Shown: positions 1-13,318 of the stretch, piece after piece
Position numbering within the stretch: position 1 is the stretch's first letter
Layout of the letters: each line of letters opens with the position of its first letter
Source: Vulcanimicrobiota bacterium
GTDB lineage: Bacteria > Vulcanimicrobiota > Vulcanimicrobiia > Vulcanimicrobiales > Vulcanimicrobiaceae
Assembly: GCA_963833095.1 (NCBI GenBank)
Contig: CAWHWQ010000001.1
Location: 736,001-800,000, forward strand
Reading direction: 5' to 3'
Length of the DNA stretch: 64,000 nucleotides
Notes under the pieces: model-generated
The model's input: the letters and a program-made list of their open reading frames with translations, nothing else
Database searches by the model: none
What the model was told of the DNA's origin: nothing
Made by a program: the position numbers and the translations under genes

Positions 1-746
1 CCGTTAACACCGCATTCGCCAAGCGCCAGCATCCTCCCGGCAAGTAGCAACGCTCCCCGCACCGCTCCGACCGGCAACGCGAGGACGATTCCGGGTTCGA
101 GCGCACCGATATCCACGGCCCGATGCCGGCCCAAGTCGACATGCACGGTTAGCTCCAGCGAGAGGTCATCGAGCTCATCGAGCCCGATGGCCGGATGCGC
201 CGCCGGCAGCGGGTCACGGCTCAGCGCGATACCGATGCGCGACCGCATCGGATGTTCGATCTGCAGTTCGAAAAATGTGGTAAATCCATGCAAATCGGAG
301 AGCGGCTCGAGGGTGGGTTCACGCGTGGCCGAGCCACAAATCGGTCCGAACTGCAGAGCGATTGCTTGGACGGTTCGCTCCAGCGCCGTACGTTCGAGCG
401 ATGAGAGCGCGGTTGCGCGCGAAGCGTGTTCGCCAAACACCGCCGCAGCCAGCGCTGATGCGTCTACTGGGCGAACGATCACCGCTGCGTCCGTGTTTGC
501 CATACGAACGCGATAGATCGTCGCGCCACGCCCGATGGTGCTCCACGCCGCCGGCGTCGGAATCGTCGGTTCGTAAAGTTTTAGCGTTACCGGCTCGCCG
601 AAGAGCGAACCGAGCGTCTCGCGCACGCCACTGGCCACGATACAGGCTGCGCTGACCGGAAGCATCGATCGCTCTTCGAAGACGGCGTGCCGGATCCGCC
701 GGCCGCTTTCACGCTGCGATCTCGCAGAGAATCCGAGTGTCTTCAT
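1..746 (-). CDS. FliM/FliN-family flagellar C-ring switch protein, divergent (runs off the window edge)
   Basis: Not in the ORF track; translated by hand. ATG at 746 overlaps the upstream TGA (ATGA). Reads MKTLGFSARSQ...IGLDELDDLSLELTVHVDLGRHRAVDIGALEPGIVLALP...LLAGRMLALGECGVNG, a SpoA/FliMN_C-like pattern. Flagellar context. Confidence 0.7.
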   Translation of the reverse strand, partial: MKTLGFSARSQRESGRRIRHAVFEERSMLPVSAACIVASGVRETLGSLFGEPVTLKLYEPTIPTPAAWSTIGRGATIYRVRMANTDAAVIVRPVDASALAAAVFGEHASRATALSSLERTALERTVQAIALQFGPICGSATREPTLEPLSDLHGFTTFFELQIEHPMRSRIGIALSRDPLPAAHPAIGLDELDDLSLELTVHVDLGRHRAVDIGALEPGIVLALPVGAVRGALLLAGRMLALGECGVN

Positions 747-1465
747 TTCAATAGATCCATTGCGGTCTTGCTGATGCCACCCTGGGCCTTATGCGCGGCT
801 GCCAACGCATCGAACGCCACGTAGGCCTCTTGAAGCCGGTCAAGACTGCGATCGAAGTCGATGCGGCTTTCCTCGCGCTGCATCGGCGCGACACTCGCGA
901 AGTTTCCGTCGCCGGCGCGGCCAACGTGCGGCACCGTTCCCGGCGGCGCGACAAAATGATTTGCATCGCTGGCCCCCAACTTGGTGGCTGCCGGAAAGCG
1001 CGCAAGAGCAAGTTGTCCAACGACAACACGTTCGCGCTCGCGAGCGCCACTGCGCGGGTCGACGCTTGTACGATCGTAAGCGAGCGCCCCGCTCGGCTCG
1101 ATTCGCAGTTCGTTCACACGTCCCAGTGCCTCGTCGACCGCGTCGATGTGCAATTCGCTGGTCGCACCGCCCGGCGACGTGAATCCGAGGATCGGCCGTC
1201 CGTTCGCACCGACCAACATTCCGTCAGTAATGGCAAATCCACCGTCGCGCGTATACACGGCGCGGCCACGTTCGTCGGTCGTGACGAAGTAGGCATCCGC
1301 GGGTGGCGCGACGGACAGGGGATCGAGCGCCGCGCGCGAGGTTGCCCGATCCGTTGCAGCATCACCGAACTGCGGCACGGCTCCCGGTGTGAACGCGCGT
1401 TGCACGTCTTGCGCGCGCTGCGCGATGCGGTCGAGCGCGTCTTGCGTCGCCGCGTTGATCATCAC
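743..1465 (-). CDS. Flagellar rod/hook protein, FlgF/FlgG/FlgE-like (short)
   Basis: AYFV...YTRDGGF...GMLVGANGRPILG and VGQLALARF motifs; C-terminal EESRIDF helix. Confidence 0.8.
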   Translation of the reverse strand: MMINAATQDALDRIAQRAQDVQRAFTPGAVPQFGDAATDRATSRAALDPLSVAPPADAYFVTTDERGRAVYTRDGGFAITDGMLVGANGRPILGFTSPGGATSELHIDAVDEALGRVNELRIEPSGALAYDRTSVDPRSGARERERVVVGQLALARFPAATKLGASDANHFVAPPGTVPHVGRAGDGNFASVAPMQREESRIDFDRSLDRLQEAYVAFDALAAAHKAQGGISKTAMDLLK

Positions 1466-1469
1466 GAGC

Positions 1470-2006
1470 TCACACCCCGCTTAGGTCGATGCGCAGCGCG
1501 ATGCCGCGCAGGGCTAGGGCATAGCGCGCTTCCTCGAGCGCGCGGGCCACACTCGAACGGACCGCAGCCGGGCATACGGCAACCAGCCGAATTCCGGACG
1601 CCGTGGTTTGCAGCGCGACATGCACCCGCGCTTGCGCTCCATCGATCGTGAATGTCGCGCGCCTGTTCGAGCGCACCGGATCGAGAAACGCGCGCTCGAT
1701 GCGCCGGGCGAGCGGCGAACGCTCCGCGCGGCGTTCCGGCGGCGCGGCGGTGCGCCGCGTCATCTGGCCCTTTCGCTCGGCGCCCGCGGGCGGCTGTTCG
1801 GGGGAAAGGCGGCGCGAGTATTCGCCGGCGCGCCGTTGCTCGCGCTGGATCGCCGCGTGCTTCGGGCTCGTATGGTCGCACGAAGCCGGCGAGCTCCTCG
1901 CCTGCGCAAGGTGCAGCGCCGAGTACCAGGCCTGCGAGAGAGAGCGCCGGTCGATCGCTGCCAGCGGCGCGGTAAGAATGCTAAAGCCCAACTGATGCGT
2001 GATCAT
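1470..2006 (-). CDS. Hypothetical protein, possibly FliK (hook-length control) C-terminal-like
   Basis: Low-complexity middle followed by beta-beta-alpha-beta-like C-terminus (RVHVALQ..GIRLVAVC..VARALEEARYALALRGIAL); position upstream of the hook/rod gene. Confidence 0.5.
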   Translation of the reverse strand: MITHQLGFSILTAPLAAIDRRSLSQAWYSALHLAQARSSPASCDHTSPKHAAIQREQRRAGEYSRRLSPEQPPAGAERKGQMTRRTAAPPERRAERSPLARRIERAFLDPVRSNRRATFTIDGAQARVHVALQTTASGIRLVAVCPAAVRSSVARALEEARYALALRGIALRIDLSGV

Positions 2007-2048
2007 GCCCGCATGGTGCGCGCCGACGGTGAACGGCGCGTCACCGAA

Positions 2049-3674
2049 TTAATGCGGGATTGTGAGCACGTCGAGCTTGCGGTCGTGCCCGTCGTCGAAG
2101 CCCTGCGCGCGCTGCAGGAACAACCCGTGATTGGCCAGGTCAAAGGTCAACACGAAATTTCGCAGCGAGGCATACCCAACATTGCCGCCGTCATTGCGAT
2201 CGGCAAAGGCGCCCGTGGTGCCGAGCACAACATCCGTGTAGCGATTGAATAGCCGGTACGGCCCCAGTTGCAACACGGCTACCACCGCGCCGACTGCGGC
2301 CACCGATCCACCGATGCCGCGATTGAGTTGGGGACCATAGTGCGCGGTCGAGACGAGTCCGGGATGCTCATCCAGGAAACTCTTGAAAAGCAGCAATTCG
2401 TTCGCGTCTCCCGTGTCGACGATCACGCGCGTCGGTGCATCTTGTATCTGCGCGACGATTTCGGGAAGTTCGCGGTCGGTGTCGACATCGAGCCGAATGC
2501 CGTCGGGGGCAAGGCTCCCGGGCTCCGCAATGGTCAGCGTCCCCTGTGTGGGATCAAAACGCAGTTCGGCCGCTGCAAAGAACGGATAGCCCAAGATTCC
2601 GTCAACGTGCATTGACGAGAGCGGAGGCAAATCGAGAGCGGTTGCAAGGTGCATGGGGAAGGTGACGCCGCCAATCGTGATCGGCGGCGCGTCGACCACG
2701 CCCGGGCTTGTTGTGCGTCCGGCTCCGCGGATCTCCACCGTTCCTTGGGGATGCAGCCCAAGCGCCGAAACGAGCGACGCATCAAAGACATCGGCTTGGG
2801 CAGCGGAGTCGATCAAGAACGTATACGATTTTCCTTCGATCGTAACGTTCGTATAGATCAGGCCGCCGCGTTCTTGATACGGCACCGTCACAGGCGCCCC
2901 ATTGTCGACCACCGCAACCGTAAACGGCGAGAAGATACTCGCCGCGATCGGTTGATCGACCGTAACGTTGGTAACTTGGGAGGTGATGTCAAAGCGGTGC
3001 TCACCGTCCGAGTCGACCTCGGTGAAGGGAATCAAAAATCCGCCGACGACTCGATAATCGCTGTAAACCGCGACGTGCGTGCTGTCGTGATCGACGTAGG
3101 ATTTTTCATCGATGAGCCACGTCTTGGCGTCGATACCGATCTCGTAGGTCTCGCCGCTCGGCGGTGAGATCCGCAGCCGATAGATGGATCGTCCGTCAGG
3201 GAGCGTCGCGACGGCGATATACCGTACCCACTCGGAATGCGACGCAAAAAGGTCACTATCGATAAAATCCTCGGTGACCTGCCGGCGTGCAACGATGCCT
3301 TGCAACTCGCGGATCTCGCCGTTGGGATTTTGCTCCCATAGCCTGTCGCCGACGCGTAACATGCGATCGGTTCGAATGCCGAAGGACTCGTCGCGTCGTT
3401 CGCTATCACCCCGCTGCCACTCGTGAAACGTTCCTGCAATGCCGACGCCAAGGAGCGTGCCGGTTGTCTCGTGCGTCCTCGGTTCGCGCAAATGCAGGGC
3501 AGCAAGAGCGGCGACGTGGTTAGCTAGGATCGTGGACAGTGGAGGGGCTTGCGGTTTCGTTTGGGCGCAGAGTGCGGCTACGCACGCGAGGAGCGAGGCG
3601 CTACGGCGTAGCGTTTCCGCGATACTTCGCGTAGCTGGAGAGGACGTTTTGCACGTAATTCTGCGTCTCGGCAT
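2049..3674 (-). CDS. Secreted retropepsin-like aspartyl protease with two protease domains; start uncertain
   Basis: FLIDSAA and VIVDTGD catalytic-type motifs, DGILGYPFF and GNVGYASL flaps; signal-like LRRSASLLACVAALCAQ. Confidence 0.75.
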   Translation of the reverse strand: MPRRRITCKTSSPATRSIAETLRRSASLLACVAALCAQTKPQAPPLSTILANHVAALAALHLREPRTHETTGTLLGVGIAGTFHEWQRGDSERRDESFGIRTDRMLRVGDRLWEQNPNGEIRELQGIVARRQVTEDFIDSDLFASHSEWVRYIAVATLPDGRSIYRLRISPPSGETYEIGIDAKTWLIDEKSYVDHDSTHVAVYSDYRVVGGFLIPFTEVDSDGEHRFDITSQVTNVTVDQPIAASIFSPFTVAVVDNGAPVTVPYQERGGLIYTNVTIEGKSYTFLIDSAAQADVFDASLVSALGLHPQGTVEIRGAGRTTSPGVVDAPPITIGGVTFPMHLATALDLPPLSSMHVDGILGYPFFAAAELRFDPTQGTLTIAEPGSLAPDGIRLDVDTDRELPEIVAQIQDAPTRVIVDTGDANELLLFKSFLDEHPGLVSTAHYGPQLNRGIGGSVAAVGAVVAVLQLGPYRLFNRYTDVVLGTTGAFADRNDGGNVGYASLRNFVLTFDLANHGLFLQRAQGFDDGHDRKLDVLTIPH

Positions 3675-4197
3675 ACGGGGGTACGCCGCCATACTTCTCC
3701 ACTGCGCCGGGACCCGCATTGTAGGCCGCGACCGCAAGGCGAACATCGCCGTTGAAATGGTCGAGCAAGCCTTTGATGTACTTGGTGCCACCTGCTACGT
3801 TCTGCGAAGGATCGTAGGCATCTGTGACACCGAGACCCGCAGCGGTACCAGGCATGAGCTGCATCAAGCCCTGCGCGCCGACGTTCGAGGTAGCGTGCGC
3901 ATTAAAGCCCGACTCGTTGGCAATGATTGCCTTGATCAGCGCCGGATCGACGTTTTGCGACTGCGCATTGTCATTGACCAGGGCATCGATCTGCGCCGGC
4001 GGTAGCATCGCAGGTGCGCCGGGTGCGCCTTGTGCGCTCAGTTCGGTACCCTGAGCAGCCATTTGCGATTGCAACATCGAGGCGAACGAACCCGCACCAT
4101 CCGGAGCGGCTTGGGGCAGACCGGGCAATTGCACGGGAGCGCCCGTGATCTGTTCGATACGGGAAGCGACGGCTGAGAGTTCAGTGCTGATATCCAT
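3601..4197 (-). CDS. Lytic transglycosylase (SLT domain)
   Basis: AIIANESGF, GAQGLMQLMP, AAYNAGPG, ETQNYV motifs. Confidence 0.93.
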   Translation of the reverse strand: MDISTELSAVASRIEQITGAPVQLPGLPQAAPDGAGSFASMLQSQMAAQGTELSAQGAPGAPAMLPPAQIDALVNDNAQSQNVDPALIKAIIANESGFNAHATSNVGAQGLMQLMPGTAAGLGVTDAYDPSQNVAGGTKYIKGLLDHFNGDVRLAVAAYNAGPGAVEKYGGVPPYAETQNYVQNVLSSYAKYRGNATP

Positions 4198-5227
4198 GGG
4201 CTTCCTCCAACATATCGGCGGTTTGGTGCAAGGCCTCTAGGGCCGCGGCCACGGTTATGGGCTGCGGGCCCTGACGCAGGAGCCGCTCGAGCGCGCTCTC
4301 AGCCGCAATCGCGACTTTCGTCTGCGGATCGGCCGGTTCTATGCCAAGCGAGCGAGCGTCGGCGCAACGCTCCAGCCGAGCCAGCGCCGCCCGGACCAGC
4401 GCTGCGGCGCGCTGATGTTCCGCAGTGGCGACCGCGTCCATCGTGCGGCTTGCGCTGGCGAGCACGTCGATAGCCGGAAAGTGCCCGGCGTGAGCAAGTC
4501 GCGATGAAAGCGCGAGATGCCCATCGAGCAGCGAGCGCGCGTTTTCGCTGACGGGGTCGCGATCCTCACCATCGGTCAGGACCGTTGCAATCAACGTGAC
4601 CGATCCATCCGTGAATGCGCCGGCACGCTCGACGAGTTGTGCGGTACGCGCGAAGACGCTCGGCGGATAGCCGCCGCGTCCGACGCTTTCGCCCCTCGCG
4701 ACGGCAAGTTCACGCAGCGCATTGGCATAACGCGCCAAGCTATCGAGGACCGCCACTACGTGCAAACCACGAGCTGCTAGCGCACATGCATGCGCCATGA
4801 GTAATTCCGCCGCGCGCACGCGCTCATGCGCTGTCCGATCGCTGGTGGCGCAGATCACCGTCGTTCGCTCGTCGCGCGCAGCGATCCAACGCTGCGCTTC
4901 GCGGCCGCGCTCGCCGACCAGACCAATGGCAACAGCGTCCGCGCGCGCCCCGCGGACGATCGTTTCGAGCAGGGTAGATTTGCCGGCACCCGGCGCACCG
5001 AAGATTCCGATGCGCGCACCGCGTCCGACCGTAAGCAACGCATCGATGCTTCGCACACCGGTCCACAACGGCGTGACAATCGCGCTGCGCTGGGCCGGCG
5101 TTGCCGCCGGCGCGCCGACGAGAACGTAGACGCCGTCGAGCGGAGCTAGTCCGTCCAGCGGTTCACCGCGCCCGTCGAGCGCCCGCCCGAACGCCGCCGT
5201 GCCGAGCATCGCCCGATCGGCAATCAC
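4181..5227 (-). CDS. fliI: Flagellar/T3SS export ATPase FliI/SctN, lacking the usual N-terminal region
   Basis: Walker A GAPGAGKS, GLVGERGRE, DSLARYA, GYPPSVF, SLLDGHLALS, FPAIDVLASASR; only 348 aa. Confidence 0.9.
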   Translation of the reverse strand: MIADRAMLGTAAFGRALDGRGEPLDGLAPLDGVYVLVGAPAATPAQRSAIVTPLWTGVRSIDALLTVGRGARIGIFGAPGAGKSTLLETIVRGARADAVAIGLVGERGREAQRWIAARDERTTVICATSDRTAHERVRAAELLMAHACALAARGLHVVAVLDSLARYANALRELAVARGESVGRGGYPPSVFARTAQLVERAGAFTDGSVTLIATVLTDGEDRDPVSENARSLLDGHLALSSRLAHAGHFPAIDVLASASRTMDAVATAEHQRAAALVRAALARLERCADARSLGIEPADPQTKVAIAAESALERLLRQGPQPITVAAALEALHQTADMLEEAHGYQH

Positions 5228-5709
5228 GCGCCGGCTCGCGCCAGCATCTGTTCGATGCGAACACCCAAACGCGCATCGATCGATCCGCTGCGTAGCTCGA
5301 TCTGCACGTCGTCGCTGCGCAGCGACGCATCCGGAAGAACCGGAACGTCGAAATCATGGAGCCGCTGCTGCGATGGATGCACGCGCACTGCCACCGGAAT
5401 CTCCCCACAGCGTTCGCGGGCGCGTCGCACGATCGCTTCGATATCAGCCGGTGCGAGAAGCAATTCACGGCCGACGACGTCGATCGCGATCTCGCGCAAA
5501 AGCTCGGTGAGCGAACGGTCGAGGGCGTCTGCCAGCATCGCGCGGAAGCGTCGTAGGCGCTCGCACACATCTGCGACGAGCTGCTCGTCCGGCGGCATCT
5601 CGCTGGGCTCGGGCTCGCCTTGCGGGTCTTCAACGAGCGTTTCTTGTTCTACGATGATAACCGGCGGATCTTTGCGCAGCCAGGCTGCAAATGTCATAAA
5701 CTCAGGCAT
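5224..5709 (-). CDS. fliH: FliH/SctL-like export protein (short)
   Basis: VRVHPS...LPDASLRSDDVQIELRSGSIDARL C-terminal FliH pattern; lies between fliF and fliI. Confidence 0.75.
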   Translation of the reverse strand: MPEFMTFAAWLRKDPPVIIVEQETLVEDPQGEPEPSEMPPDEQLVADVCERLRRFRAMLADALDRSLTELLREIAIDVVGRELLLAPADIEAIVRRARERCGEIPVAVRVHPSQQRLHDFDVPVLPDASLRSDDVQIELRSGSIDARLGVRIEQMLARAGA

Positions 5710-7174
5710 GACGCGCCAGCAATTCGTCGGCATTGGGGATCACCGAGCTGTGGGTGCGCGCCATGCGCTTCACAATCGCTTCGCGCTCGTGCGGCGGATA
5801 GAGTTCGAGTACCGCAGCCGCGGTTGCAGCCGGAAGCGCGCTGATGATCGCCGCCGCCGTATGCGGCGGCTCTCCCGCCAGCGCGCCGCGCACGCGCGCC
5901 GGTGCATAACCCGTCACAGTACGTGAGGTGCGCGCGATCGCGTCGCGTTCGAGCGCGCCTTTGATCAAGGCGTGCACGTTCGGCAGCAGGTAGCGCCCGA
6001 ACGCGAGCAGACCGATCACGATCGCGAGCGTCGGCAAGAGCGGCACGACCGCGCCATAGAGCAGAAACCATGCATCATGCTTTTCTGCTAGGACACGATG
6101 AAACGCCACCGCCTGTACGCTCAATTCGTCGCCACGATGAGGATCGAAGCCGACAGTCGCTGCCGCCAGTTCGCGAACCTTGGCTAGGTCCGCGCCACGA
6201 CCAGCATCAACGAATACGGCGGTTGAAATCCGCGCGATCGCGCCCGGATCAGCATGCGCGACGCTTTCGTGCGTCTCGCTTCCGCGGTCGTCATGCTCGT
6301 CGTTCTTTGCGTATTTCTTGCCTCCGCCGTCGTAGGATTCGGTTTGCGCGCTGCTCTCGATCGGATCGCCGCCGATCGGCGAGCGCCGCGTGTCGCGCTC
6401 CTCCGAGGTCGCATGCGTATATTCGGCGTGCACGCGCACGATTGCAACCCCCGCGCCAAGCGAGGAATCCAACGCCGACTGCAGCGATCGCTCCAGGGCG
6501 TCGGGATCGTCGCCGCCGGTACCACTGTCATCGAGCGCGACGCCGCGATCGTCCAGGATCGTCACATTGGCCGGATCGAGCCCTTCGACCGAGGCGCCGA
6601 CGAAGCGTCGGATCCCGGCCACGGCGTCACGCGAAAGGACGGCGCCGGGATGCAGTTGTATGCGCACGCTCGCCGTGGCTGGGCGCGTGCTCTGATCCGC
6701 GAACTGCGCGCTTTGCGCCGGCGCCACGATCACGCGCGCATCGTCGACGCCGTCGACGCTGCGTAGCGCCACTTGAACATCGCCCGCAAGGCCGCTGCGC
6801 GTTTGCGCATCGATAACCGCTTGAGGCGTCAACACGCCGACATTGGCAAGCGCCTCACCCATGGTCTCAACGTGCGCGTGGGGGACGCCCGCTAGCGAGA
6901 GACGCAAGAGCAAATCGCTGCGCCGGGCCGCGTCGACGATGACGTTGTCGTCGCTAGGCGAAAACGGCACGCTCCAGGCAGCGAGTTGTTCCTGCACCTC
7001 GGCAAGCTGGTCGGCGTGGAGCGGGCTTGCAAAAAGCGGCGCACGGTCCGGGTGTCCGACGATCGTCGCGACAACCGCAAATCCCACCAAGAGAGCGACG
7101 ATGGCAGCCGCGACAATTCGCATGGACGGTGGAAGCGCACGCACGCGAGCGATAGTCGAGTGCAACTGCAGCAT
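5702..7174 (-). CDS. fliF: MS-ring protein FliF with a fused C-terminal FliG-middle-like domain
   Basis: Two TM helices; DGVDDARVIV, ATASV, VEGLDPANVTILDDRG and GFDPHRGDELSV FliF motifs; tail GEPPHTAAAIISALPAATAAAVLELYPPHEREAIVKRMA. Confidence 0.88.
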   Translation of the reverse strand: MLQLHSTIARVRALPPSMRIVAAAIVALLVGFAVVATIVGHPDRAPLFASPLHADQLAEVQEQLAAWSVPFSPSDDNVIVDAARRSDLLLRLSLAGVPHAHVETMGEALANVGVLTPQAVIDAQTRSGLAGDVQVALRSVDGVDDARVIVAPAQSAQFADQSTRPATASVRIQLHPGAVLSRDAVAGIRRFVGASVEGLDPANVTILDDRGVALDDSGTGGDDPDALERSLQSALDSSLGAGVAIVRVHAEYTHATSEERDTRRSPIGGDPIESSAQTESYDGGGKKYAKNDEHDDRGSETHESVAHADPGAIARISTAVFVDAGRGADLAKVRELAAATVGFDPHRGDELSVQAVAFHRVLAEKHDAWFLLYGAVVPLLPTLAIVIGLLAFGRYLLPNVHALIKGALERDAIARTSRTVTGYAPARVRGALAGEPPHTAAAIISALPAATAAAVLELYPPHEREAIVKRMARTHSSVIPNADELLARHA

Positions 7175-7175
7175 G

Positions 7176-7472
7176 TTAGATCTGTAAGTTCAGGAGCGTT
7201 TGCACGGTCTGCGCACTGCGCTGCGCGGCGGCTGTCGCGACCGAGAGCGCCACATCGGCCTGAGCTCGCTGATACATTGCATCTTGCAGCGAGCCGGTGC
7301 CCGCGGCATAGGCATCCTCTGCCTGCGTCGCGTCACCAAGCGCGCGACCAATCGCATCAAGAGCTCCGGCAAAATCCGATCCGCAGGACGCGGCTCTAGC
7401 TTCCAAGTCCTCGAAGGGCGACCGACCGGAGGAGGGTGGAACCGTGTCTGGCGTAAGCAGTTCGACCTTCAC
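7176..7472 (-). CDS. fliE: Flagellar hook-basal body protein FliE
   Basis: GTG at 7472 overlaps the flgC stop; FAGAL...LQDAMYQRAQADVALSVA...VQTLLNLQI. Confidence 0.82.
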   Translation of the reverse strand: MKVELLTPDTVPPSSGRSPFEDLEARAASCGSDFAGALDAIGRALGDATQAEDAYAAGTGSLQDAMYQRAQADVALSVATAAAQRSAQTVQTLLNLQI

Positions 7473-7798
7473 GCCAGTCGCCCCATATCGATCGTGCGTT
7501 CTTCGAGCGTCTTGCCTACATCGAAGAGCGAGGCGTCCGATTCGTAGGCGCGCGACGCGTTCATCACTGCAATCATCTCGGTAATCACGTCGACGTTGGT
7601 TCCCCGCTCCTGATGCGTGCCCGCGAACTGCACGGCAGTGCCGTCGCCGTCTTCGGTAAGCGCAAATTCGGGAATCAGGCGAGCGTAATGGCCATTTGGA
7701 CCCGCCGCCTCGGCGGCGGCCACATTTCGCGCGCACACGTCGAGCGCCGCGCGCTGCGCGTCCATTGCGGCGGCCGCGCTCGCGAGCAGATCGATCAT
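7469..7798 (-). CDS. flgC: Flagellar basal-body rod protein FlgC (short)
   Basis: AMDAQRAALDVCARNVA...NVDVITEMIAVMNASRAYE. Confidence 0.85.
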   Translation of the reverse strand: MIDLLASAAAAMDAQRAALDVCARNVAAAEAAGPNGHYARLIPEFALTEDGDGTAVQFAGTHQERGTNVDVITEMIAVMNASRAYESDASLFDVGKTLEERTIDMGRLA

Positions 7799-8010
7799 TT
7801 CGTCACCGCCTTGATTTCCTCGAGGCGCGCATGCATCGCGCCGAGCAGCGCTTCATCGAAAATTGCCGCCTGCGCGGTCTGCGCCATCGCCGCGTCGGCG
7901 GTTCGCCCACCCTCCCCGGCGTTCGCGCGGGCGATAACGTTTTGCGCTTGCTGTAATCGGACTGCAGCGGATGCGAGTCCGCCGCGCAGGGATTCGGCTA
8001 CGTCGAACAT
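7795..8010 (-). CDS. Minimal FlgB-like rod protein (71 aa)
   Basis: First gene of the operon, before flgC; keeps only N- and C-terminal helices (L..A..R...VIARAN; DAAMAQTA..A...ARLEEIKAV). Confidence 0.55.
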   Translation of the reverse strand: MFDVAESLRGGLASAAVRLQQAQNVIARANAGEGGRTADAAMAQTAQAAIFDEALLGAMHARLEEIKAVTK

Positions 8011-8065
8011 GTCACGAGGGTAGGGATGGGGGATGGCCGGGGCGCATCTGCGATGTTACGAAGAT

Positions 8066-8659
8066 ATGAACAAAGGGCGATTCGAATCGTTTACCGACGG
8101 AGTGTTCGCGTTCGCGATCACGCTGTTGATCTTGGGAATCGCGCTCCCGGTGATGCACGATCCGAGCGAACGCGAACTGCGTCACGCGATCCTCTCCCTG
8201 TGGCCGAACTTCATCGCCTTTGCATTGAGCTTCGCTGTGATCGGGATCATGTGGCAGAACCACCATGCTCTCTTCCGCTTCGTCGCGCATATCGATCGTA
8301 AGACCGTTGCGTTCAACTTGCTCCTGCTCTTCGGCACCGTGGTCATTCCTTTTGCCACCTCGGCGATGGGCGCGTATCCGACCATGCATGCGTCGACGCT
8401 GCTCTACGGTATCGTGCTCACGTGGTGCTCAACGTCCTACAACCTGCTGCTAAGCCACCTCATTGAGAGCGGGGCGTTCGAAGCATCAGTCACGCGAGAG
8501 CAGATCGCGCGTTCAGTCGTTGCCTATCGCGTAGGCTGGTTTACCTACGTTGCCGCGACCTTACTCGCGCTCGTGGTGCCGTTGCTTAGCTTTGCCGCGT
8601 ACGTCGGCGTGACGTTCTACTACTACGTTCCCCACGGCGTTGACGCTGACGTCCAATGA
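8066..8659 (+). CDS. TMEM175-family (DUF1211) potassium channel
   Basis: GRFESFTDGVFAFAITLL and WQNHH motifs; about six TM helices. Confidence 0.88.
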   Translation: MNKGRFESFTDGVFAFAITLLILGIALPVMHDPSERELRHAILSLWPNFIAFALSFAVIGIMWQNHHALFRFVAHIDRKTVAFNLLLLFGTVVIPFATSAMGAYPTMHASTLLYGIVLTWCSTSYNLLLSHLIESGAFEASVTREQIARSVVAYRVGWFTYVAATLLALVVPLLSFAAYVGVTFYYYVPHGVDADVQ

Positions 8660-8873: not shown

Positions 8874-11800
8874 TCAATGCGCCGGAGCGAGTTCCGGCGC
8901 GGCCGATTGTTCGTCGAGGTGCTCACCGTGTCGAAATACTTCGTCCGACGGCGCGACCCACATGTACACGTTCGGGATCAGGAGTAGCGTGAGCACAAGC
9001 GAGCTAAGCACACCGCCAATGACCACGATGCCGAGGCTCGAACGCGAGATCGAGCCTGGGTCGAGCGCGAGCGCGAGCGGCAGGTTTCCCGCGACAACCG
9101 AAAAGCTGGTCATGACAATCGGGCGGAACCGGGTGTGTGCGCTCTCCAAGATCGCGTCGAGTTTGTTTGTTCCACGCGTTCGAAGTGTGTTGGCATAGTC
9201 CACAATCAGGATCCCGTTCTTCGTCGCAATCCCTATTAAGAGAATCGTCCCAATCAGCGAAAAAAGGTTGAGCGTTCGATGCGTCAGCACGAGTGCCCCG
9301 ACGGCGCCGATTGCGGCCACGGGCACGGAGAAGATGATGATGAACGGGGAGAGGTAGCTGTTGTAGAGCGCCACCATCAGCAAGTAAACAAGAATGACCG
9401 AGATGATCATCGAGGTTCCGATGCCGACCAGCGCCTGATGCATGAAGTCCTGTTGGCCAAGCGGCGCGGGGCGCACGACAATGCTCGGGGGCAGGTGAAG
9501 CGACGGAATCTTTTTCATGAGCGCATTTTCGACACTCGACAACGACGAGTCGGGTGCAACGTTCGAGTCGACGTGAATGACGGTATTTCGGTCGGTGCGC
9601 GTCATCAGCGGCGGGGTTGGTGTGGATTCAAAGGTCGCGATATCGCCGAGATAGACAATCGAGCCATTCGAGGCGCGAATCGGCACGTTGCGCAGCAAAT
9701 CGAGATTGGTCTGGTCCTGGGGCGGATAGATGACCTGCACTTGTTCGAGGCCCGACGTCGTTTCGAATTGCGTCGCGACGTTGCCGCCGAACGCTGCGCC
9801 TGCGGCTTGCGCCGCCTGACCCACGTCGACACCTAATGCCTGGGCCTTCGCGCGATTGAAGATGATCGAAATCTCGGGCGTAAGCGCCGCGCCGCTGCTG
9901 TTGACGCTGGTCGCGCCTTTGACGCTCTTGAGTGCGTCGAGCACTTTCTGCGCGTAGGGCGTCGGATCGCCGCCGGTCACGTCAGTGACGAGAAAGTCCA
10001 CCGGCTGCGCATTGCCGCCGCCCGTACCCGTCGAGGGCACGACCACCACGGAGACGTTCGAAGGGAACGAACCTTTCGCAAGTTTTTGGAACTCGGACAC
10101 CCAGTACGAGGTCGGGTGCTTACGGTTGTCTTTGAGCCAGACGTGCACCTGACCGGCGTTCTGCTGCGAAACAAATCCGCCGAAGGACGCCGCGTACGCG
10201 CCGGCGACCGCCGTGTTCGCGAAGATGTCGGAGAACCCGAGAATTTTTTTCTCGAAAGCGAAGATGCCGGTCTCGACCGTAGTCAGCGGCGTTCCGATCG
10301 GGTAGGCAACTTGAATGAAAATCTCGCCCCGGTCGGTCGCCGGAATGAACTCCTCACCGACGACGCCGAGCGGGATCATGGCAATCGCGAGCACGAAGGT
10401 CGCAAGACAGAAGATGGCTACGAGTTTGCCGTGGTTCAGGCCCCACGGCAGCGCGCGCTTCGTGTACCACGAGCGCAGCGCGTCGAAGCGCTCGCCGAAC
10501 CAGTCCACCGCTTTCCACGCCTTCCAGTGCGACTTGAGCGCCCACAGTCCGGCTAGGGTCGGCGTGATTGTGAATGAGACGAAGAGCGACGTCAAGGTCG
10601 AGATCACAACGACGATCGCAAATTCCGACAGTTGGCGCCCGACTTGCCCTTGAATGAAGGCGATCGGGAAAAATACGACCACGTCGACCAGGGTGATGAC
10701 GATTGCCGCGGCTCCGATCTCTTCGCGACCACTGACCGCCGCGTCTTCGGCCTTCTGCTTGAGCTCGGTGAAGTGACGCTCGATATTCTCGAGCACGACC
10801 GTCGAATCGTCGACGAGAATGCCGATCACGAGCGACATGCCCAGCAACGAGTCGGTGTCGAGCGTAAGACCCATCAGCTTCATCACGGTCATCGCGATTG
10901 CGAGCGACGTCGGAATCGACACGCAGACGACGATGGCGCTACGCCACGAGCGCAAGAAGAACACCATCGCTAGACCGGTAAGTAACACGGCTTCAGCAAG
11001 GGTGCGGACCACGATGTCGATCTGCTGTTCCGTGAACTCGGACTGCACGTGGATGACGCGAAATGAGATCTCCGGGAACTGCCGTTCGACCTTGGGCAGT
11101 GCGGCGATCACGGCGTTAGAAGCGTCAACCTCACTTGCTTGCGAGGTCTTTTGCATCTGTAAGAAGAGGCCGGGCTTCCCGCTGATGTGCGCGACCTGGA
11201 GCCGCGGTTCATAGCCCGATGTGACCGTCGCGACGTCGCCGATGCGCACAACGGAATTGCTGGCCGTCCAGGGATTGACTTGGCCAGGCAAACTCGAAAC
11301 GCCGCCGCTGATGTTTTCGACCTGTCCCGGCAGCTGGTTGGTTTGCGAGGACGCGCCCGAGACGATGATCGGGAGATTGCGCACATTATCGAGCGTGGTT
11401 ATATCGCCGCGGACGTCGATGGTGGTCTGGCGGTTCGCCTCGTAGGCAAACCCGCCCGGAACGCGCGCATTGTCCGTTGAGACCGTATTGATGACGTCGT
11501 TCAGCGTCAAATTCGCAGCCGCCAACTTTACTGGGTCGACCTGAATTTCGTATGCCGGCGTGACGAGGCCGCCGACGTTGGCGAACGAAATGCCCGGGAC
11601 TTGCTCGAGTTGCGGCGCGATGACGTTCTGCGCGTAGAGCGCCAATTCGTTGATCGGCAGCTTCTGCGAGTACAACGCGAGCACGACGACCGTCGACTCG
11701 GTCGGATCGTAGAGATTGACCGTCGGCGGCGTTATGTTGGTGGGAAGGAATTTCTCCGAAGCCTGAACGGCCTTGTTCGTAAGCGCAAGATCGGTCGCTG

Positions 11801-12107
11801 TGTCGGACTTGATGTCGAATACCGCGCTGATCGAAGCGGAGCCCTGCTGCACGACCGAGTTGATCGTTTGCAGATCCTGCGTGCCGGCGAGATTCTGCTC
11901 GATCGGCTGCACGATCTCGTCGCGCATCTCCGTTACCGACGCACCGTTGTACTGTACCGAAACGGTGACGGTCGGCTGGCTGACGTCGGGGTAAAGCTCC
12001 TTGACAATGGTGATTGTGCTCATAATGCCCGCAAACGCCATGAGCGCGATGATGACGAAAACGAGCGTCGGCCGTTTGATGAAAAGCCGCGTTAAGCTAA
12101 ATTTCAC
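8874..12107 (-). CDS. RND efflux permease (AcrB/AcrD/AcrF family)
   Basis: GILVDDSTVVLENI, KNGILIVDYAN, RFRPIVMTS motifs; 1077 aa. Confidence 0.95.
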   Translation of the reverse strand: MKFSLTRLFIKRPTLVFVIIALMAFAGIMSTITIVKELYPDVSQPTVTVSVQYNGASVTEMRDEIVQPIEQNLAGTQDLQTINSVVQQGSASISAVFDIKSDTATDLALTNKAVQASEKFLPTNITPPTVNLYDPTESTVVVLALYSQKLPINELALYAQNVIAPQLEQVPGISFANVGGLVTPAYEIQVDPVKLAAANLTLNDVINTVSTDNARVPGGFAYEANRQTTIDVRGDITTLDNVRNLPIIVSGASSQTNQLPGQVENISGGVSSLPGQVNPWTASNSVVRIGDVATVTSGYEPRLQVAHISGKPGLFLQMQKTSQASEVDASNAVIAALPKVERQFPEISFRVIHVQSEFTEQQIDIVVRTLAEAVLLTGLAMVFFLRSWRSAIVVCVSIPTSLAIAMTVMKLMGLTLDTDSLLGMSLVIGILVDDSTVVLENIERHFTELKQKAEDAAVSGREEIGAAAIVITLVDVVVFFPIAFIQGQVGRQLSEFAIVVVISTLTSLFVSFTITPTLAGLWALKSHWKAWKAVDWFGERFDALRSWYTKRALPWGLNHGKLVAIFCLATFVLAIAMIPLGVVGEEFIPATDRGEIFIQVAYPIGTPLTTVETGIFAFEKKILGFSDIFANTAVAGAYAASFGGFVSQQNAGQVHVWLKDNRKHPTSYWVSEFQKLAKGSFPSNVSVVVVPSTGTGGGNAQPVDFLVTDVTGGDPTPYAQKVLDALKSVKGATSVNSSGAALTPEISIIFNRAKAQALGVDVGQAAQAAGAAFGGNVATQFETTSGLEQVQVIYPPQDQTNLDLLRNVPIRASNGSIVYLGDIATFESTPTPPLMTRTDRNTVIHVDSNVAPDSSLSSVENALMKKIPSLHLPPSIVVRPAPLGQQDFMHQALVGIGTSMIISVILVYLLMVALYNSYLSPFIIIFSVPVAAIGAVGALVLTHRTLNLFSLIGTILLIGIATKNGILIVDYANTLRTRGTNKLDAILESAHTRFRPIVMTSFSVVAGNLPLALALDPGSISRSSLGIVVIGGVLSSLVLTLLLIPNVYMWVAPSDEVFRHGEHLDEQSAAPELAPAH

Positions 12108-13318
12108 GGCTTGTATGAAACCTTCTCGCCGTCGCCGACGCTGGCTTGGCCGTTGCTAATGACGCGCGTTCCCGCATTGATTCCGGTCACCACACTGCGG
12201 GTCCCGTCGCTCGCAACTTCGGTTACGCTCACGGTTTTCGCGGTGTTGTCCGTTTGTACGATTTGCACGGCGTCGTGGTTATCATCGGTGAATGCCGTCG
12301 TCGGCACCAGTACGCCGCGCGCAGCCGGTAATGCAACGCTGCCGCTGACGGCCATGCCCGGCCGCAAGACCTCGCCCGGATTCGCCAAGAGCACCTTCAC
12401 CTGGAACTGCGTCGAACCGGGTTGAATCTCGTTGAGCACGCCGATTACCGAGCCGCTGAATTTCTGTTTGCCCGATGCGCCGTCGGTCTGAATGGTCGCG
12501 ATCGTTCCACTGCGAATGCCGGCAACTTGATCCGTCGAGCCGCGCAAAATCGCATAGATCGGCGAGACCTGCTGCAGGGTAAAGATCTGACGCGTGCCCG
12601 GATACTCGCCGGGATTGAGGTTGCGATTGACGACGACGCCGTTGATCGGTGAAACGATCGTCGCTTTCGAAATCGACACGCGAATTTGCTCCGCCTGCGC
12701 GAGCGCGACCGCCTCCTGTGCCTTAGCCTGCGCAACCGACGATTGTTGCAGACCCGGCGCGTTGATATTCGAGCCATTTGCTTGCACGGTTGCTTGTGCG
12801 CTTTGAAGCGTCGCTTGGTCGTTCCGCACGAGGGCGCGGTCGGCTTCAACCTGTTGCTCGGAGACGTATCCTTGGCGCAGGAGCTGCTCGTCTCGATTAT
12901 CGACTCTCTGATCGCGCGCGAGGTTAGCGGCGGCTGAATTCAAGCCTTGACTGCCCTGCGTGATCAACTCGTTGCCGGAGTAGACCGTGTGCGCCGTGTT
13001 GGCTGCGTCGCTCTGCGCGGTTGCAATGTCAGACTGCAGTTGGGCTTGCAGATCGGCCGTATCGAGCTGCGCGAGCACCTCACCCTCGGTGACGTGGTCG
13101 CCCTCCTGGACGTTGACCGAATCGGCCGGCTCGCTCAAGCTGGACTGAATGGCGACGTTTTCGTACGGCGCAATAAGCCCCGACATCGCCGACGAGGGGA
13201 CGAGCGTTCCGGTTTGGGCGATTGCGGTGTCGACGTACGGGGCACTCGCTTGAGCCGCATGCTTGGGGCCGCAAGCGCTGAGCACGGTGACCAGTGCGAG
13301 AAAAACCAGGCGCTTCAC
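12104..13318 (-). CDS. RND periplasmic adaptor subunit, lipoprotein
   Basis: Lipobox LSAC; VQEGDHVTEGEVLAQLD; IVSPINGVV; LRPGM. Confidence 0.92.
   Translation of the reverse strand: MKRLVFLALVTVLSACGPKHAAQASAPYVDTAIAQTGTLVPSSAMSGLIAPYENVAIQSSLSEPADSVNVQEGDHVTEGEVLAQLDTADLQAQLQSDIATAQSDAANTAHTVYSGNELITQGSQGLNSAAANLARDQRVDNRDEQLLRQGYVSEQQVEADRALVRNDQATLQSAQATVQANGSNINAPGLQQSSVAQAKAQEAVALAQAEQIRVSISKATIVSPINGVVVNRNLNPGEYPGTRQIFTLQQVSPIYAILRGSTDQVAGIRSGTIATIQTDGASGKQKFSGSVIGVLNEIQPGSTQFQVKVLLANPGEVLRPGMAVSGSVALPAARGVLVPTTAFTDDNHDAVQIVQTDNTAKTVSVTEVASDGTRSVVTGINAGTRVISNGQASVGDGEKVSYKP

Follow-up and report, generated by a model that had tools for sequence, protein, structure and literature searches.

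A flagellum-like operon of Vulcanimicrobiota that probably encodes a non-rotating type III protein exporter

Gene content of the operon and its outlying loci

The window, the whole 64,000-nucleotide stretch that was analysed (C1:736001-800000), belongs to a 2.8-Mb, 81%-complete assembly of a soil bacterium, and its named relatives are metagenome-assembled genomes (MAGs) of Eremiobacteraeota/Vulcanimicrobiota with 49-91% identity. It opens with a flagellum-like operon, termed S2 here; a separate, ordinary flagellar set of the same genome is termed S1. A sequence-only reading of the window had proposed that the operon is miniaturised but intact and may encode a non-rotating derivative machine. 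The eleven open reading frames (ORFs) that it described (71, 109, 98, 490, 161, 348, 198, 580, 178 and 240 aa, and an open ORF of 248 aa) are all present at those sizes on the minus strand, without internal stops or frameshifts. The coupled junctions are present as well: 4-nt ATGA/GTGA overlaps at 7795/7798, 7469/7472, 5224/5227 and 743/746, an 8-nt overlap at 5702/5709, a 17-nt overlap at 4181/4197 and a 1-nt gap at 7174/7176.

The first gene (7795..8010, minus strand like all genes of the operon) encodes a FlgB-like proximal rod protein of 71 aa with an eroded N-terminal motif. It has no Pfam match and is assigned by position, by a ratio of nonsynonymous to synonymous substitution rates (dN/dS) of 0.03-0.18, and by an hhalign profile comparison in which its family aligns to the C-terminal helix of FlgB (probability 69%, expectation value (E) 4e-5). 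FlgC (109 aa, 7469..7798; Pfam Flg_bbr_C, E 6e-6, with TIGR01395 under its cut-off) and FliE (98 aa, 7176..7472; Pfam FliE at E 7e-4, under the cut-off, with orthologues at the same place) follow. The 490-aa product of 5702..7174 joins FliF to the middle domain of FliG, as indicated by Pfam (YscJ_FliF, YscJ_FliF_C, FliG_M), by a structure model with a fold search and by an alignment of FliG. The middle domain occupies residues 427-476 (Pfam, E 3e-9), aligns to the EHPQ segment and ends before FliG_C. The fusion has three ring-building motifs and two membrane helices, with no FliG_N and no FliG_C torque domain. A separate fliG had been reported as missing; FliF in fact carries its middle domain, and what has been lost is the torque domain alone. 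Public databases label these fusion proteins as ordinary FliF.

A short FliH (161 aa, 5224..5709; Pfam FliH, E 2e-6) precedes the FliI ATPase (348 aa, 4181..5227), whose N-terminal barrel is deleted in the window's genus. Walker A, the catalytic Glu, Walker B and the Arg finger are kept in 13/13 aligned rows, presumably with the functional roles that we assign to them. The 348-aa form was seen only in the window's genus and at one other locus, and three other aligned family members have 406-416 aa. The next gene encodes a lytic transglycosylase (SLT; 198 aa, 3601..4197; Pfam SLT, E 1e-30) without a signal-peptide-like stretch, which stands in the same operon slot in other lineages and is missing in some family members; it is likely an export substrate of the machine and would serve to open the wall. 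The aspartyl protease-domain protein (580 aa, 2049..3791; Pfam and locus comparison), earlier counted as a part of the machine, is a passenger, because it is absent from several operons (L072, L073, L074, G130 and G086) and is retained where the machine has been deleted.

The 178-aa product of 1470..2006 (dN/dS about 0.3) is a FliK/SctP-like protein for length control and switching. In the ESM Atlas it resembles clusters of HpaP/SctP, of the FliK family (score 0.94), and it aligns weakly to FliK with hhalign (E 0.07); a positional orthologue carries Pfam Flg_hook. The 240-aa axial protein encoded at the flgE position (743..1465; Pfam FlgE/F/G D1) was modelled as a rod/hook subunit of FlgG size (D0-D1; predicted local distance difference test (pLDDT) 87; Foldseek E 2e-11) with a system-specific hairpin. 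Axial proteins of the window's class and of the other lineages match each other (hhalign between lineages, 99.5%) and have a derived N-terminus and this hairpin in common. Their fold is that of FlgG or of a hook protein without D2, and the axial protein is the best marker of the system. The last ORF is that of a FliM-like protein (268 aa, 1..746), which ends outside the window at C1:735940 and whose orthologues contain FliMN_C. Neighbours that are not part of the operon are a gene for a TMEM175-family potassium channel, which diverges from flgB (8033-8659, plus strand), and an AcrB/HlyD efflux pair (8874-13318, minus strand).

To the left of the window lie the end of fliM, fliN, fliP, an insertion, and then fliQ, fliR, flhB, flhA, secD and secF. 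The gate proteins are near normal size (FliP 218, FliQ 89, FliR 237, FlhB 342 and FlhA 679 aa) and, together with the longer FliI of family members, they contradict the 'uniform' shrinkage described earlier. FlhB retains its NPTH site, FliP its Met loop and FlhA its conserved charged loop, which we take to have their customary roles. The insertion between fliP and fliQ (C1:731683-734869) holds a Gp49/helix-turn-helix toxin-antitoxin-like pair and a Vgb-like ORF and, by inspection, MetF-like and O-methyltransferase genes; fliQ has its own promoter copy. A second S2 locus (C1:847951-850506) encodes FlgF, FlgG, a FlgJ-type cap, a FliA/WhiG-like sigma factor and, after the sigma factor, a 102-aa protein (C1:847951-848259) that is conserved in the window's class, with no Pfam family and ESM Atlas matches below 0.9. 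The flgG of this locus has a strong match (E <1e-30) in 45/47 chosen genomes, most of them without flagellin.

Selection, distribution and descent

The intact operon evolves under purifying selection. Pairwise Nei-Gojobori comparisons with six congeners (fliH unscored in two pairs and fliP in one; dS above 1 in distant pairs) gave dN/dS of 0.02-0.35 for every operon gene scored, and the core genes have values comparable to those of an AcrB-family neighbour (0.03-0.08). Distribution was followed in an even sample of 160 genomes of the phylum, 91 of the window's class (families f1, f2 and f3) and 69 others, which we take to be class Xenobia. These tallies are counts of kin that are not independent, not tests, and those of f3 take in an unpublished genome (G036) for which the depositors' permission is needed. 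A full-length orthologue of the FliF-FliG fusion is present in 85/91 class genomes (a match in G154, E 3e-4, was dropped); with the dN/dS values across related genomes, this retention bears out the earlier proposal of selection rather than decay. The machine is dispensable, because at its locus five of the six class genomes without the operon show either pseudogenes or the scars of a deletion: G139 and G154 keep the flgB/flgC starts and the flhA end, the protease and the SLT end remain in G081 and G115, and G122 has pseudogenes. In G153 the locus is cut by a contig end.

Among the 91 class genomes, FliG_C was detected in 31, MotB_plug in 30 and flagellin over the cut-off in 30, always in carriers of the fusion, and 54/85 carriers have none of the three. 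Other lineages have a full-size operon in the same order (flgB-flgC-fliE-fliF-fliG-fliH-fliI-fliJ-SLT-fliK-axial-fliM-fliN-fliO-fliPQR-flhB-flhA), with FliF of ~555 aa, FliG of 278-357, FliI of ~440 and an axial protein of 270. Neither flgD nor motAB was found in the ten full-size loci read, some of which are cut by contig ends. The axial-protein profile matched 144/161 genomes at E 1e-40, including 63/69 other-lineage genomes (two maybe by paralogues), and 43 of these 63 lack flagellin. FlgD was detected in 6/41 and FlgI in 6/47 genomes, the same six flagellin-bearing ones. According to PMC6079164, R281, D288, D289 and R297 of FliG are stator-contact residues. By an alignment made in this analysis, with the FliG of S1 and of Rossellomorea as reference, the arginines at the two basic positions are replaced in 7/7 full-length FliG proteins of other lineages, two MotB-bearing genomes included, and the acidic pair is largely kept.

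Some genomes carry additional copies. G111 has two FliF-FliG fusions (C62 and C18), and a second full FlhA falls inside the S2 clade in G087 (C21) and G089 (C24). Other lineages also encode stand-alone FlhA cytoplasmic domain proteins, some fused to TPR or FliG_N, with up to 19 FHIPEP matches per genome (G087, G075, G098, G083, G050 and others; L136:8069-9556, L139:3215-5521, L141:6488-12313), and a member of ~470 aa occurs in most genomes searched. These domains are possible cargo-sorting adaptors.

A quick FlhA tree of 41 rows (including five other flagella and three SctV, with no Myxococcus or Chlamydia row) placed both S2 versions in one clade with an approximate likelihood-ratio support (SH-aLRT) of 100, apart from S1, the five other flagella and the three SctV. 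The FliF tree also recovered one clade for both versions (support 99). On these sequence comparisons, common descent of the full-size and fused S2 versions is shown. The branching order of the FlhA tree, f3,(f2,f1), agrees with taxonomy, and the parts form a series from a full-size operon with altered FliG, through the fusion with a 440-aa FliI (f3) and a FliI of ~410 aa (most f1 read), to 348 aa in the window's genus. Long branches of the window's class in the FlhA tree, together with stepwise domain loss and a minimum of three separate recent losses that left scars, would be expected if S2 were the remnant of a duplicated flagellar operon in slow decay. We find this scarcely credible: the dN/dS values, with core genes near their AcrB-family neighbour, refute it for the window's genus, and 85/91 retention, conserved promoters and a branching order matching taxonomy also argue against it.

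In the window's genome S1 occupies C1:146-174 kb, with fliF, fliG including FliG_C, motAB, hook, flgD, fliK and a second gate, and its remainder (rod, P/L rings, flgK/L and flagellin) is on contig C4. The window operon duplicates the ring, rod and gate of S1 and contains no motor or filament genes. The sequence-only reading had allowed that fliG, motAB and fliC elsewhere in the genome might serve the operon as an ordinary flagellum; these genes do exist elsewhere, but they sit in S1 with its own rings, rod, hook and gate. The S1 operon (C1:154000-174200) has many frameshifts in the window's assembly and is mostly intact in congeners. Relative to congeners, indels are in excess in both S1 and S2 of the window's genome, and the S1 frameshifts are likely a sequencing or assembly error.

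Where S1 has been lost in f1, fliJ stays beside purA in 26/28 genomes and fliO lies within 1.5 kb in 19/28. Both are export parts that are missing from the short S2 operon and present in the full-size version, and S2 of the window's family has probably borrowed FliJ and FliO from the flagellar operon. Such purA-side remnants are at L174:1429-2203 (G051), L176:1192-1893 (G130) and L177-L205; G051 also keeps cheY beside the remnant, and flgM and fliW elsewhere. Apparent sharing of fliJ and fliO, and the presence of motAB, fliG, flgD, flgK/L and flagellin in the window's genome, would also suit an additional flagellum that takes its stators, hook cap and filament from S1 or uses unrecognised ones. 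With FliG_C deleted in the window's class and altered in other lineages, we regard this as very unlikely, and the 54 class carriers without all three motor and filament markers contradict it for flagellin-less carriers. Weak flagellin matches in one genus (g20) fall, by inspection, on an efflux-adaptor-like gene.

Promoters, candidate cargo and the proposed machine

The flgB promoter region (8011..8071, minus strand) and the region upstream of flgF in the second locus carry 6-mer repeats at an 11-bp period (-61, -50 and -28 for flgB) and a TAnnnT box ~7 nt before the start codon; the transcript from the flgB promoter is likely leaderless. A model built from 13 flgB promoters of other genera ranked flgF and flgB first and second in the window's genome (25.1 and 24.3, against at most 20.7 in the reversed-genome control), and with a model from nine flgF promoters flgF came top, followed by fliQ in second and flgB in fifth place. 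Two further promoters, those of fliP (rank 7) and fliK (rank 12), were picked up by a joint model with scores inside the control range, giving five S2 promoters with the repeat. The copy inside the operon (2007..2067, minus strand), 61 nt before the fliK-like ATG, scored weakly (14.3, within the range of the reversed-genome control) and was not in the training set. In other lineages the repeat is GTTAAC-N5 and exceeds the 95th percentile of the null before 8/9 operons and 5/5 second loci; in f3 it does so in 1/8 upstream regions only. In AT-richer genomes it reads TTAA-N7-TTAA, which is the spacing given for the cell-cycle regulator CtrA in PMC9437464. We infer a regulator of the OmpR family for this repeat. 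A PHO regulon was considered and rejected: pstS lacks the repeat by inspection and is not among the scan matches, and the match near pstS lies inside an opposite-strand gene. A conserved 150-aa gene stands divergent from flgB in other lineages, with the repeat region in common (L086:16130-16579, L088:15513-15965, L089:3731-4198).

The exact motif is enriched in 5/7 other-lineage genomes (for example, 59 vs 4, 80 vs 5 and 25 vs 0 in the control). Thirty motif loci were returned and yielded, by rule, 21 distinct downstream proteins, with start codons also set by rule. None of the 21 has a signal-like stretch, compared with 51/218 controls, and S/N/Q/T/P make up a larger share of their N-termini (0.35 vs 0.26, p 6e-4). 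Genes adjacent to the motif in these lineages encode two NlpC/P60 proteins, one PLD protein, two RTX-repeat proteins and many unassigned proteins. A D-x-V-x-I-S motif was tried as a cargo signal and was not used (3/21 vs 8/218, p 0.06). TTAACA-N5-TTAACA, with CtrA-like spacing, marks a global regulon in G075, G054, G098, G083 and G087 (L247-L276), with one site near mraZ.

In 11/11 second loci read, in both lineages, flgF-flgG-flgJ and the sigma factor form one transcription unit, with derived residues in common. The sigma factor could belong to an assembly checkpoint, in which the basal body is measured and the FliK-FlhB switch exports an anti-sigma factor, freeing the FliA/WhiG-like sigma factor and timing a developmental or cell-cycle step. 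The retained FliK-like and FlhB switch elements, the CtrA-like spacing of the repeat (PMC9437464) and a promoter that marks little beyond the machine in the window's genome are consistent with such a role. We consider it doubtful: no FlgM match was found in 4/5 flagellin-less carriers, the 102-aa protein has no match to a two-sequence FlgM profile (probability 0.3%), and other lineages have a large cargo-like regulon.

We conclude that S2, which has neither a torque domain nor a stator or filament of its own, is probably a non-rotating, flagellum-derived type III protein exporter. Non-rotation, as first suspected from the sequence, is supported because FliG_C has been lost and 54 carriers are without FliG_C, MotB and flagellin. 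By the criteria tested, S2 is not a flagellum and not an injectisome. It has the flagellar export gate (FliPQR-FlhB-FlhA, with FliH/FliI) and the rod proteins FliE, FlgB, FlgC, FlgF and FlgG (FlgB and FliE by weak matches); flgK/L are not part of the S2 operon, with no genome-wide FlgK search made. FliE, FlgB and FlgC, which should be absent from an injectisome, are all present. No SctC secretin linked to S2 was found in the loci read, and no SctF needle, SctD ring or translocon was seen there, with no genome-wide search made.

By analogy with flagellar biology, the export gate would sit inside the FliF ring, and the fused FliG domain would merely dock FliM/FliN and the ATPase. Export would begin with the rod subunits and the transglycosylase, producing a short rigid conduit across the wall, and FliK with FlhB would then switch export to late cargo. 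In other lineages this cargo would probably be wall hydrolases without signal peptides, a phospholipase and uncharacterised proteins under the same promoter.

Several observations weigh against this reading or parts of it. The FliI tree did not recover the S2 clade, and did not reject it either (approximately unbiased test, p-AU 0.34), and FliI of the window's genus has lost its N-terminal barrel. All six class genomes without the operon retain fliJ too (one as a fragment), which weakens the borrowing of FliJ and FliO, and a search without a positive control did not find FliJ in 5/5 f3 genomes. Two small genomes showed no enrichment of the motif (4 vs 1 and 2 vs 4 in the control), and the 21 downstream proteins include some cytoplasmic enzymes and four flagellar-type export substrates (two FlgB, an axial protein and FliK). 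No cargo candidate was found under the repeat promoter in the 81%-complete genome of the window, where the scan returned mainly the system's own promoters. P/L ring parts (FlgH/I) were not found for S2, and the closed carrier G130 has no secretin match, yet Omp85 is present; no route through the outer membrane was found. Omp85 was detected in all five carriers tested, and 4/5 genomes have secretins elsewhere.

The lack of a detected FlgH/I ring, FlgD and dedicated secretin would fit a structure confined to the envelope, with ring and rod ending in the periplasm as an anchor, a spacer or a membrane-tube platform whose own subunits are its sole cargo. Flagellar export proteins are tied to nanotubes and to an inner-membrane hat-like structure in PMC9380563. 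We judge this unlikely, as a ruler and a switch are kept and imply a second substrate class, and stand-alone FlhA cytoplasmic domains and cargo-like genes occur in other lineages.

For the exporter itself, we tentatively suggest that it might be a rod-tipped device delivering wall hydrolases, phospholipases and membrane-active proteins against other bacteria. It might then be a third type III branch as old as the phylum Vulcanimicrobiota (Eremiobacterota) and separately derived from the flagellum, with living stages that run from a charge-altered rotor through the FliF-FliG fusion to ATPase-barrel loss and FliJ/FliO borrowing. A related family is predicted to be predatory (PMC9259500). A cultured member of the class, Vulcanimicrobium alpinus, is described in PMC9758169 as diderm and without flagella or a flagellin gene, yet with fliN (WPS_28550) listed.

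Comparison with known systems

No description of S2 was found in full-text literature searches, a coverage that leaves out subscription papers. Few intermediates stand behind the inferred origin of the injectisome; S2 looks like the same change from flagellum to exporter run separately, with its graded stages surviving today and a rod retained in place of needle and secretin. It represents a natural minimal parts set for type III export. 'Flagellar genes' and their expression in Vulcanimicrobiota need not mean swimming, and the existence of a cultured flagellin-less class member opens the prediction to tomography and proteomics.

The closest gene order is that of the Bacillota fla/che operon (Rossellomorea CP128836.1), flgB-flgC-fliE-fliF-fliG-fliH-fliI-fliJ...fliK-(hook)-fliM-fliN/Y-fliO-fliP-Q-R-flhB-flhA, which also has a short 259-aa axial gene after fliK and, as in S2, flagellar-type families for every part. 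Unlike the Bacillota type, S2 has no flgD, fliL, motAB, che genes, flgK/L or flagellin, and its FliG torque domain is altered or deleted; it has in addition an operon-internal transglycosylase, its own promoter signal and its own sigma factor.

Like the injectisome, S2 is a flagellum-derived exporter without a motor, but in the quick tree its FlhA falls outside the three-sequence SctV group. Like the 'needleless' type III secretion system of Myxococcales (PMC3459982; PMC12075869), it requires no secretin of its own; the Myxococcus system acts in prey lysis, according to these papers. S2 keeps FlgB, FlgC, FliE, FlgF, FlgG, FlgJ and part of FliG, whereas the Myxococcales system is without FlgB, FlgC, FliE and FliG according to PMC3459982, where FlgB, FlgC and FliE serve as flagellum-specific markers against non-flagellar systems. 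The Buchnera basal bodies cited in the same paper are similar to S2 in their reduced flagellar locus, non-motile host and proposed protein secretion. Compared by description only, Buchnera differs in that S2 is free-living, phylum-wide, vertically inherited and often found beside a complete flagellum.

A fusion of the FliF C-terminus to the FliG middle domain is also reported for the non-flagellated Chlamydiaceae (PMC4768692). The Chlamydia fusion, at ~330 aa, has two ring motifs and is accompanied by few flagellar partners (PMC4768692), in contrast to the three motifs, full gate and rod of S2, and we infer that the two FliF-FliG fusions are convergent.

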